This document shows positions 36,533 to 36,922 of a DNA stretch of 64,000 nt, in pieces. A program made the position numbers and the translations under genes. Source of the DNA: Escherichia phage KEP3; sequence record PP047753. One strand, given 5' to 3'. Within the stretch, counting starts at the first letter, position 1, and each line of letters opens with the position of its first letter. The notes below the pieces were generated by a model. It did no database searches. It had not been told where the DNA came from and worked only from the letters and a program-made list of their open reading frames with translations.

Positions 36533-36675
36533 AGAAAATGTACAGTCTCTGGGGAAGGGTTGGTAAAGGTTTTGACTGGACGCTTCTTCGTTCAAACGTT
36601 AAACGTAGTGAATTACCAGAACTCATCACTCACTATTTAAAAACATACAGAGAGGTAGACTATCGTGAACAATAA
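36529..36675 (+). CDS. small hypothetical protein (48 aa)
   Basis: Not in track; hand-translated MKKMYSLWGRVGKGFDWTLLRSNVKRSELPELITHYLKTYREVDYREQ; ATGA overlap with upstream stop. Confidence 0.35.
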   Translation: MKKMYSLWGRVGKGFDWTLLRSNVKRSELPELITHYLKTYREVDYREQ

Positions 36676-36922
36676 GGTTAAGAGTTGTGTGAAAGTAATG
36701 GTTGCACTTGGAGTAATTTTTCTATCTGGCTGCAACCCCTCTTATGAAGATAAAAATGCTTCCTACAGCCTCCCACCAGAGATGCAAGATTGCACAGTCT
36801 ATGAGTTATATGGTGATACTGTAAGCAGAGATATTGTTGTTGTCAGATGTCCAAACTCTCAAACAACAACATCTTATATCTATGGCAAAAATGGTCAATC
36901 ACATACCACGGTTATTGAGTGA
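36665..36922 (+). CDS. putative lipoprotein (85 aa)
   Basis: Signal peptide with lipobox FLSGC; GTG start with GAGAGGTAG RBS (alternative ATG at 36698). Confidence 0.5.
   Translation: MNNKVKSCVKVMVALGVIFLSGCNPSYEDKNASYSLPPEMQDCTVYELYGDTVSRDIVVVRCPNSQTTTSYIYGKNGQSHTTVIE

Follow-up and report, generated by a model that had tools for sequence, protein, structure and literature searches.

The 64,000-nucleotide stretch of Escherichia phage KEP3 DNA analysed here (sequence record PP047753; the whole stretch is called the window) carries a small gene for a predicted lipoprotein, the KEP3 lipoprotein. A preliminary description of this DNA had reported a small open reading frame (ORF) at 36665-36922 with a signal peptide and the lipobox VIFLSGC, and on re-reading both the coordinates and the lipobox were found to be correct. 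The ORF was also said to lie amid DNA polymerase and ligase genes, and indeed it is flanked by polA (33317-36046) and the ligase gene (37293-38429). The source region belongs to a Felixounavirus: the 2.5 kb around the lipoprotein gene matched 259 phage records at 80-99% nucleotide identity, nearly all of them Felixounavirus or other Ounavirinae, with Escherichia, Salmonella, Shigella and Citrobacter as hosts.

The N-terminus of the protein reads MNNKVKSCVK, VMVALGVIF and LSG/C23, that is, a basic n-region, a hydrophobic h-region and a canonical lipobox. A lipoprotein signal was defined by a basic n-region, a hydrophobic h-region and the lipobox [LVI][ASTVI][GAS]C, all of which the protein has. 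A strict regular expression for such signals, applied to every start in the six frames of the 64-kb window, returned two loci only, 36665-36922(+) and the o-spanin gene at 5768-6037(-). The N-termini differ among orthologues (MNNKVKSCVK..., MWKAVIALG..., MLKLL...) and the lipobox is retained, its Cys being 100% conserved in alignments of 80 and of 103 homologues. A combined test for the lipobox and the Cys pattern was passed by 113 of the 122 homologues, the remainder being truncated forms or variants; the commonest lipobox classes among the 113 were LAG, LTG, LVG, ITG and LSG. By these sequence criteria it is well supported that the product is a bacterial-type prolipoprotein, a predicted substrate of Lgt and LspA. 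Lipoprotein sorting in E. coli follows the +2 rule, according to which Asn at position +2 leads to Lol transfer to the outer membrane. Asp at this position is an inner-membrane retention signal in Enterobacterales. The residue at +2 of the KEP3 lipoprotein is Asn, and the rule predicts that the protein is sorted to the outer membrane.

Apart from the signal peptide and lipobox, the protein had been described as having no other features. This proved to be wrong, as it has two further invariant Cys residues (C43 and C62), a VVRCPNSxTxT...GK motif and membership of the family phrog_902/DUF4884. Invariant or nearly invariant in the alignment of 103 sequences were C23, Y/F34, L/M36, P37, L/M40, D/E42, C43, I/V45, Y46, V59, V60, C62, P63, N64, S/A65, T69, G74 and K75. 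Within the motif the conservation was 96% for V60, 100% for C62 and P63, 90% for N64, 98% for S/A65 and 80% for T69. We infer a disulfide between C43 and C62, and the two extra invariant Cys are consistent with an oxidised periplasmic protein. An AlphaFold2 (AF2) model of the mature domain, built with the 103-sequence alignment, had a mean predicted local distance difference test score (pLDDT) of 76.5, with 84-85 in the core and strands at mature residues 5-7, 22-26, 35-39, 44-51 and 54-61; the model of the full-length protein was weaker (pLDDT 65.5). In the model the VVRCPNSxTxT and GK residues would form one strongly conserved polar-hydrophobic face. The loop between strands beta2 and beta3 varies in sequence and length across the family. 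Some family members possess an additional Cys pair in the C-terminal hairpin (...SCGKNCN..., ...SCGKTTCN...) around the conserved GK, which suggests a second disulfide stapling the strand with the invariant Lys.

Judged by its conservation, ORF 36665-36922 is a genuine gene under purifying selection. Pairwise ratios of nonsynonymous to synonymous substitution (dN/dS, Nei-Gojobori) for the mature region of 7 Ounavirinae phages were 0.03-0.30, with dS up to saturation. Orthologues occupy the same polA-ligase slot in Felixounavirus, Mooglevirus (Sf13) and Suspvirus (mistaenkt), and FelixO1 and the BASEL phage Bas63 both carry the gene. An identical protein was found in NCBI on an 88-kb contig, together with hundreds of deposited entries named "hypothetical protein" or "Lipoprotein" that are 85-95% identical to the KEP3 lipoprotein. 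Frameshifted variants of 64 amino acids (aa) are present in metagenomic relatives, and a recognisable ORF is kept in about 194 of the 259 related records; the gene is thus conserved yet dispensable.

It could be argued that the lipoprotein ORF is spurious or a mis-called frame, and that the real gene is a TTG-extended ORF of 101 aa at 36834-37139, since the records of phages finno and momo list the extended downstream ORF but not the lipoprotein ORF. In both of these phages the annotated 101-aa form of the neighbour, with its TTG start, covers the 3' end of the lipoprotein gene. However, the phrog_4427 profile has 68 positions and matches from ATG 36933, which means that the extension, and not the lipoprotein ORF, is the annotation error. 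The dN/dS values in the lipoprotein frame, the homologues of 30-45% identity in distant phage families and the annotation of the lipoprotein ORF in many relatives' records also contradict the spurious-ORF reading, which was ruled out by conservation and has a negligible probability. By the profile match, the true start of the downstream phrog_4427 gene is ATG 36933, hence the two genes do not overlap. The lipoprotein gene was found to be intact yet unannotated in finno (locus L001, 3658-3921), momo (locus L011, 1489-1755) and Pseudomonas phage PspYZU05 (locus L006, about 2960-3196).

Table 1. Positions of the lipoprotein gene, its parts and other features in the window
Feature	Position	Strand	Remarks
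Ribosome-binding site GAGAGG	36650-36655	+	9 nt before GTG; read from sequence
Lipoprotein coding sequence	36665-36922, stop included	+	85 aa, GTG start, TGA stop
Signal peptide, residues 1-22	36665-36730	+	n-region K4, K6, K10; h-region VMVALGVIF
Lipobox L-S-G-C, residues 20-23	36722-36733	+	Cys23, predicted lipidated N-terminus of mature protein
Mature domain, 63 aa, 7.07 kDa, isoelectric point 4.6	36731-36919	+	Linker of about 10 residues, then five-strand beta domain (AF2)
Cys43	36791-36793	+	100% conserved; presumed disulfide partner of Cys62
Motif V59-V60-R61-C62-P63-N64-S65-x-T67-x-T69	36839-36871	+	Conservation from the 103-sequence alignment
G74-K75	36884-36889	+	G 83%, K 94% (103 sequences)
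Downstream neighbour, 68 aa, phrog_4427	36933-37139	+	Separate from lipoprotein gene; profile covers 1-68 of 68
i-spanin, 115 aa	5931-6278	-	phrog_1152 "Rz-like spanin", E = 9e-42
o-spanin lipoprotein, 89 aa	5768-6037	-	Lipobox MSG/C; phrog_4180, weak phrog_456 "Rz-like spanin"

The KEP3 lipoprotein matched phrog_902 with E = 2e-16 as the full protein and 5.8e-10 as the mature domain alone, and every homologue has a precomputed Pfam assignment to PF16225, labelled DUF4884. The architecture of the family (70-150 aa, a single domain, a lipobox and a C...C-P motif) is common to the KEP3 protein. On this evidence the KEP3 lipoprotein is a direct member of phrog_902/DUF4884, a family that has already been catalogued. 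An hmmscan against a local Pfam-A copy gave no PF16225 even at E <= 10, and Pfam membership rests on the precomputed tables; the PF16225 model may be absent from the local copy or changed in it. The lipoprotein was detected by tblastn in 541 phage records. A profile search gave 324 clusters at 90% identity, and an exhaustive hidden Markov model search gave 1161 clusters at 50% identity (E <= 1e-3), 636 of them with E <= 1e-10 and all of 70-150 aa. The carriers are Ounavirinae, Vequintavirinae (4MG, Enterobacter F2M1E), Stephanstirmvirinae (Klebsiella phi1_175008), 350-kb jumbo phages (Serratia BF, Escherichia A4/PBECO4, and Erwinia and Yersinia relatives), T4-like phages of Pseudomonas, Acinetobacter and Aeromonas, and 114-kb Vibrio phages classified as Demerecviridae, that is, T5-like siphoviruses. 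The same set of motifs is conserved across the myovirus, jumbo, T4-like and T5-like Vibrio members.

Attempts to relate the family to characterised proteins gave little. Scans of the protein and distant homologues against Pfam, NCBIfam and PADLOC produced only sub-threshold signal-peptide matches (LPAM_1, TrbK, EexN, LptM, Lysis_col), and sequence profile searches of the PDB, both full-length and mature-only, likewise gave signal-peptide matches only. A Foldseek search of the PDB library (entries to April 2026) with both AF2 models gave no neighbour with E under 1; in BFVD only family members were returned, named "Lipoprotein" or "uncharacterised". Two narrow peptide patterns of the family gave 16 pattern matches in 185,579 bacterial and archaeal species genomes, none of them confirmed, the patterns being too narrow to show absence. 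A functional study of the family was not found in the literature on DUF4884, PF16225, the Felixounavirus lipoprotein and phage-encoded lipoproteins.

In all lineages examined, the lipoprotein gene is found in an early or replication region, where its neighbours are small and for the most part lack annotation. When neighbours within 2.5 kb at 13 loci were compared by all-against-all blastp, the lipoprotein was the only gene common to different lineages, and the occasional small membrane-protein neighbours (4MG, BF) were not conserved. The lipoprotein therefore appears to be stand-alone, without a conserved partner gene. A gene for a tail fibre or receptor-binding protein (RBP) was never seen next to it in the loci examined; in the T5-like Vibrio phages it is situated between genes for an origin-binding protein, a helicase and an NAD-ligase. 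In KEP3 the genes between 36108 and the ligase point the same way, and their overlapping stops and starts suggest that they are transcribed with the replication genes as a single, translationally coupled unit. Scanning for promoters and terminators revealed no convincing private promoter at the lipoprotein ORF, the sole near-consensus match in the 3-kb region lying 3' of the ligase gene. Just 3' of the polA stop, at 36053-36088, TTGACA is followed by a perfect 7-bp inverted repeat, GGTACTC-N7-GAGTACC, and then by TATACA/TACAAT. Phage AYO145A has a conserved copy of this element, which its annotation calls a sigma-70 promoter. Its spacer of 22-24 nt is too long for a standard promoter, and the element may be a phage-specific promoter, an operator or a terminator-promoter junction.

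The size, lipobox and position of the ORF had led to the proposal that it may mask a receptor in the manner of T5 Llp. The part of this proposal concerning a small secreted lipoprotein stands, given the invariant lipobox Cys in 103 homologues and the purifying selection, and the part concerning Llp-like receptor masking was weakened by five results. In masking of the Llp/Cor/Rtp45 type, a lipoprotein anchored in the outer membrane attaches, from the periplasmic side, to the outer-membrane receptor that the phage itself uses, and by an allosteric effect keeps phages from adsorbing to infected cells and lysis debris. The KEP3 lipoprotein does resemble Llp: its mature part has 63 residues compared with 61, so that both are domains of about 60 aa on a short tether, with predicted outer-membrane sorting (Asn at +2) in KEP3, one intramolecular Cys pair (presumed for KEP3) and expression before the late genes (as gene order suggests for KEP3). 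There is also a faint local likeness to Llp just after the lipobox (P-x-x-[IL]-x-C-x-x-Y-x-M), and the homologue from jumbo phage A4 matched phrog_1119 with E = 0.014 over residues 1-48, mostly signal peptide. Moreover, Rtp45 provides a precedent that the lipopolysaccharide (LPS) translocon LptDE can be the target of such lipoproteins (PMC12685063). Rtp45 of phage Rtp is a superinfection-exclusion lipoprotein which binds LptDE, and it serves small siphophages whose RBP binds LptD (PMC12685063). With about 6 kDa it is, like the KEP3 lipoprotein, a small periplasmic lipoprotein. Rtp45 (PDB 9RPS) was absent from the results of the PDB profile searches and Foldseek, and no direct pairwise comparison with it was made.

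Against these similarities, alignment of full-length sequences by hhalign gave a probability of 90% for a relationship with Llp, but the aligned part was the signal peptide plus about 10 residues, and the family profile of the mature domain gave only 1.7% against mature Llp. Homology to Llp was rejected on this drop upon removal of the signal peptides. Llp itself belongs to phrog_1119, labelled "Cor superinfection exclusion protein", which the KEP3 lipoprotein did not match at E <= 1, whereas the KEP3 protein belongs to phrog_902 only. The PDB sequence copy contains Llp as 8A60 and 7QJF, and the profile searches returned signal-peptide matches only. Neither entry was listed by Foldseek, where nothing fell below E = 1, with models of pLDDT 65-76 and small domains giving weak statistics. 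The Cys spacing differs as well, being +19 in the KEP3 lipoprotein and +47 in Llp. While T5 llp abuts the RBP gene oad, the KEP3 gene is in the replication block and not beside an RBP gene. A search with the regular expression for a separate Llp-like lipoprotein at 80-114 kb of the T5-like Vibrio phage D34 found none, the position of the RBP gene there not being established.

The distribution of the family and the receptors of its carriers also speak against masking. The family is conserved, at 30-45% identity, in phages infecting Vibrio, Acinetobacter, Pseudomonas, Aeromonas and Enterobacterales, whose receptors are unrelated. The target of Llp is FhuA, T5's own receptor, whereas Felixounaviruses use the LPS core. 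The Felixounaviruses PhSAL1-4 need the LPS core oligosaccharide for plaques, deletions of ompC, btuB and fliC having also been tested (PMC13196588); in this literature, which concerns phages other than KEP3, Felixounaviruses depend on the LPS core and are not known to use a protein receptor that a periplasmic protein could mask (PMC13196588). In addition, about one third of the members have Asp at +2 and are predicted to be anchored in the inner membrane, a location that does not allow an outer-membrane protein to be masked. The mixture of +2 residues speaks against any mechanism in which every member has to contact an outer-membrane receptor from the periplasmic side. We therefore consider Llp-type masking unlikely for the KEP3 lipoprotein. 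With these results the specific support for an Llp-like action on the phage's own receptor is gone and an exclusion function is not disproved; superinfection exclusion in the broad sense is plausible.

A role in lysis was also considered, in which the protein would be a second outer-membrane lipoprotein aiding or timing outer-membrane disruption, either in an o-spanin-like manner or as a regulator of spanin or endolysin. Such a role would agree with the fact that o-spanins make up the majority of the phage lipoproteins studied so far, and those of the Rz1 type are, like the KEP3 lipoprotein, phage-encoded lipoproteins of similar size in the outer membrane (predicted for KEP3). In phage 4MG, furthermore, the upstream neighbour of the lipoprotein gene is annotated as an "Rz-like spanin" (phrog_6073). 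This 4MG protein (locus L004, 3738-3983) has 82 aa, one transmembrane segment, only about 40 periplasmic residues and two Cys; from its sequence the phrog_6073 spanin label looks doubtful, the protein being too short for an i-spanin. Neighbours of this kind are missing at most other loci, and in KEP3 there is no adjacent or embedding i-spanin, the upstream 48-aa and the downstream ORFs having no transmembrane segment. The modelled mature domain is a folded beta domain rather than the proline-rich extended chain of the spanin type, and the gene lies in the replication block instead of a late lysis cassette. Above all, the window already contains a canonical overlapped spanin pair at 5768-6278(-), next to the polynucleotide kinase gene (6807-7502). 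Since 5768-6037(-) overlaps the phrog_1152 spanin out of frame, it is the o-spanin of the phage. The spanin hypothesis was rejected because of this pair, and a lysis-accessory role as a whole is distinctly unlikely.

Tentatively, and as a possibility rather than a probability, we propose that the KEP3 lipoprotein works without a partner as a binder in the periplasm, that its target is either a conserved element of the envelope or the penetration machinery of incoming phages, and that it protects the infected cell after adsorption. The prolipoprotein would be exported by Sec, lipidated at Cys23 by Lgt, cleaved by LspA and acylated by Lnt, as in established lipoprotein biogenesis. The linker of about 10 residues would then hold the 50-residue beta domain, stapled by the C43-C62 disulfide, at the periplasmic face. 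There it would bind a periplasm-exposed element common to many Gammaproteobacteria or to incoming phages, and not a phage-specific surface receptor. Candidate targets would be the cell-wall penetration or DNA-ejection apparatus of the incoming phage, or an envelope machine needed by that apparatus, and binding would make the infected cell refractory to a second infection at a post-adsorption step. The occurrence of the same motifs in 541 records and 1161 clusters from diverse lineages suggests that the target is not the receptor of one lineage. Most of the small periplasmic proteins and lipoproteins that have been characterised in virulent coliphages act either in exclusion (Llp, Rtp45, Spackle) or in lysis. 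Since the spanin role is filled in KEP3, post-adsorption protection is favoured.

The proposed logic is closer to that of T4 Spackle and Imm, or of the plasmid entry-exclusion lipoprotein TrbK, than to that of T5 Llp. Spackle (Sp) acts after adsorption by inhibiting the tail lysozyme gp5 (PMC7677548). It is a small protein with a disulfide, made early by a virulent phage with a contractile tail and exported to the periplasm, and its functional logic is the one favoured here for the KEP3 lipoprotein. Unlike the KEP3 protein, it is soluble and not a lipoprotein. Spackle is all-helical, in contrast to the all-beta model of the KEP3 lipoprotein. The KEP3 lipoprotein gave no match to the Spackle family phrog_1586 at E <= 1 and no fold match in the PDB.

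Several points weigh against post-adsorption protection by a conserved binder. Asp was found at +2 in 37 of the 113 family sequences (42% in the 103-sequence alignment), in phages of Escherichia, Klebsiella, Enterobacter, Serratia and Erwinia among others, and with about one third of the family having this residue no single membrane is predicted for the family. The conserved residues may be purely structural, so that a conserved target is not established. Early or middle expression of the gene is suggested by gene order only. Finally, the searches for homology, structural matches, neighbours and publications give no function for the family.

The same stand-alone, apparently early, dispensable gene, widespread in phages of Gammaproteobacteria, would also fit a conserved host target. 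The protein could serve host-envelope takeover, counter-defence or immunity, either by inhibiting an enzyme or sensor in the host periplasm, such as a lytic transglycosylase, a protease or an envelope-stress sensor, or by neutralising a periplasm-acting toxin, so that the cell remains whole and productive up to lysis. That the family has sorting signals for both membranes would suit a target that is soluble or peptidoglycan-associated and accessible from the inner as well as the outer membrane. On the other hand, no similarity to known periplasmic inhibitors or immunity proteins was seen in the PDB by sequence or by fold, PADLOC gave no matches for the lipoprotein family, and a host-target precedent was not found in the literature on phage-encoded lipoproteins and DUF4884. 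A host target is accordingly a doubtful explanation, albeit one to be kept in mind. The probability left after the post-adsorption binder, the host target, receptor masking and a lysis role belongs to something else.

As to the gene model and the neighbours, the start of the lipoprotein coding sequence overlaps the stop of the upstream 48-aa ORF (36529-36675) by 11 nt. A second possible start, GTG 36689, would give a protein of 77 aa with an identical mature part, and relatives have an ATG near that position (78-aa forms). The order on the plus strand is the 909-aa family-A DNA polymerase gene polA, the small ORFs, and the ATP-dependent DNA ligase gene, whose product matches Pfam DNA_ligase_A_M and phrog_114; in relatives the same block extends on to the genes for dihydrofolate reductase and thymidylate synthase. 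A Cys-rich (zinc-ribbon-like) ORF of 72 aa at 37136-37354 overlaps the annotated ligase start by 62 nt and is also labelled "DNA ligase" in relatives. It is absent from Sf13, where the ligase has 366 aa. An internal ATG, perhaps the one at 37329, is probably the true start of the ligase, and the 378-aa call is possibly too long. Directly 3' of polA, phages Sf13, mistaenkt, momo and pSJ21 carry a gene for an HNH homing endonuclease, and none is present in the KEP3 window or in finno. Its occurrence in some relatives only marks this site as a mobile-element insertion polymorphism.

Nothing new in kind has been demonstrated here; the family is large, occurs in many lineages and is unrelated to Llp, and a study of its function was not found. 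Several deposited genomes miss the lipoprotein gene or displace it by a wrongly extended neighbour. It is conceivable, if somewhat doubtful, that DUF4884/phrog_902 represents an unrecognised and widespread class of phage periplasmic effectors, in which a minimal lipid-anchored beta domain acts against one conserved envelope machine or the incoming penetration apparatus. The gene is directly testable in FelixO1 and in Bas63, a BASEL phage infecting E. coli K-12. The family occurs in phage groups used for therapy and biocontrol (Felix O1-like, rV5-like, phi92-like, jumbo and T4-like), and if exclusion or envelope remodelling is its function, interference between co-applied phages, and hence the design of phage cocktails, would be affected. 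If the proposal is true, the family would bring about exclusion or protect the envelope independently of the receptor, in a way that differs from those of Llp, Cor, Rtp45 and Spackle, and a receptor-independent mechanism would be added to the few exclusion systems that are understood.

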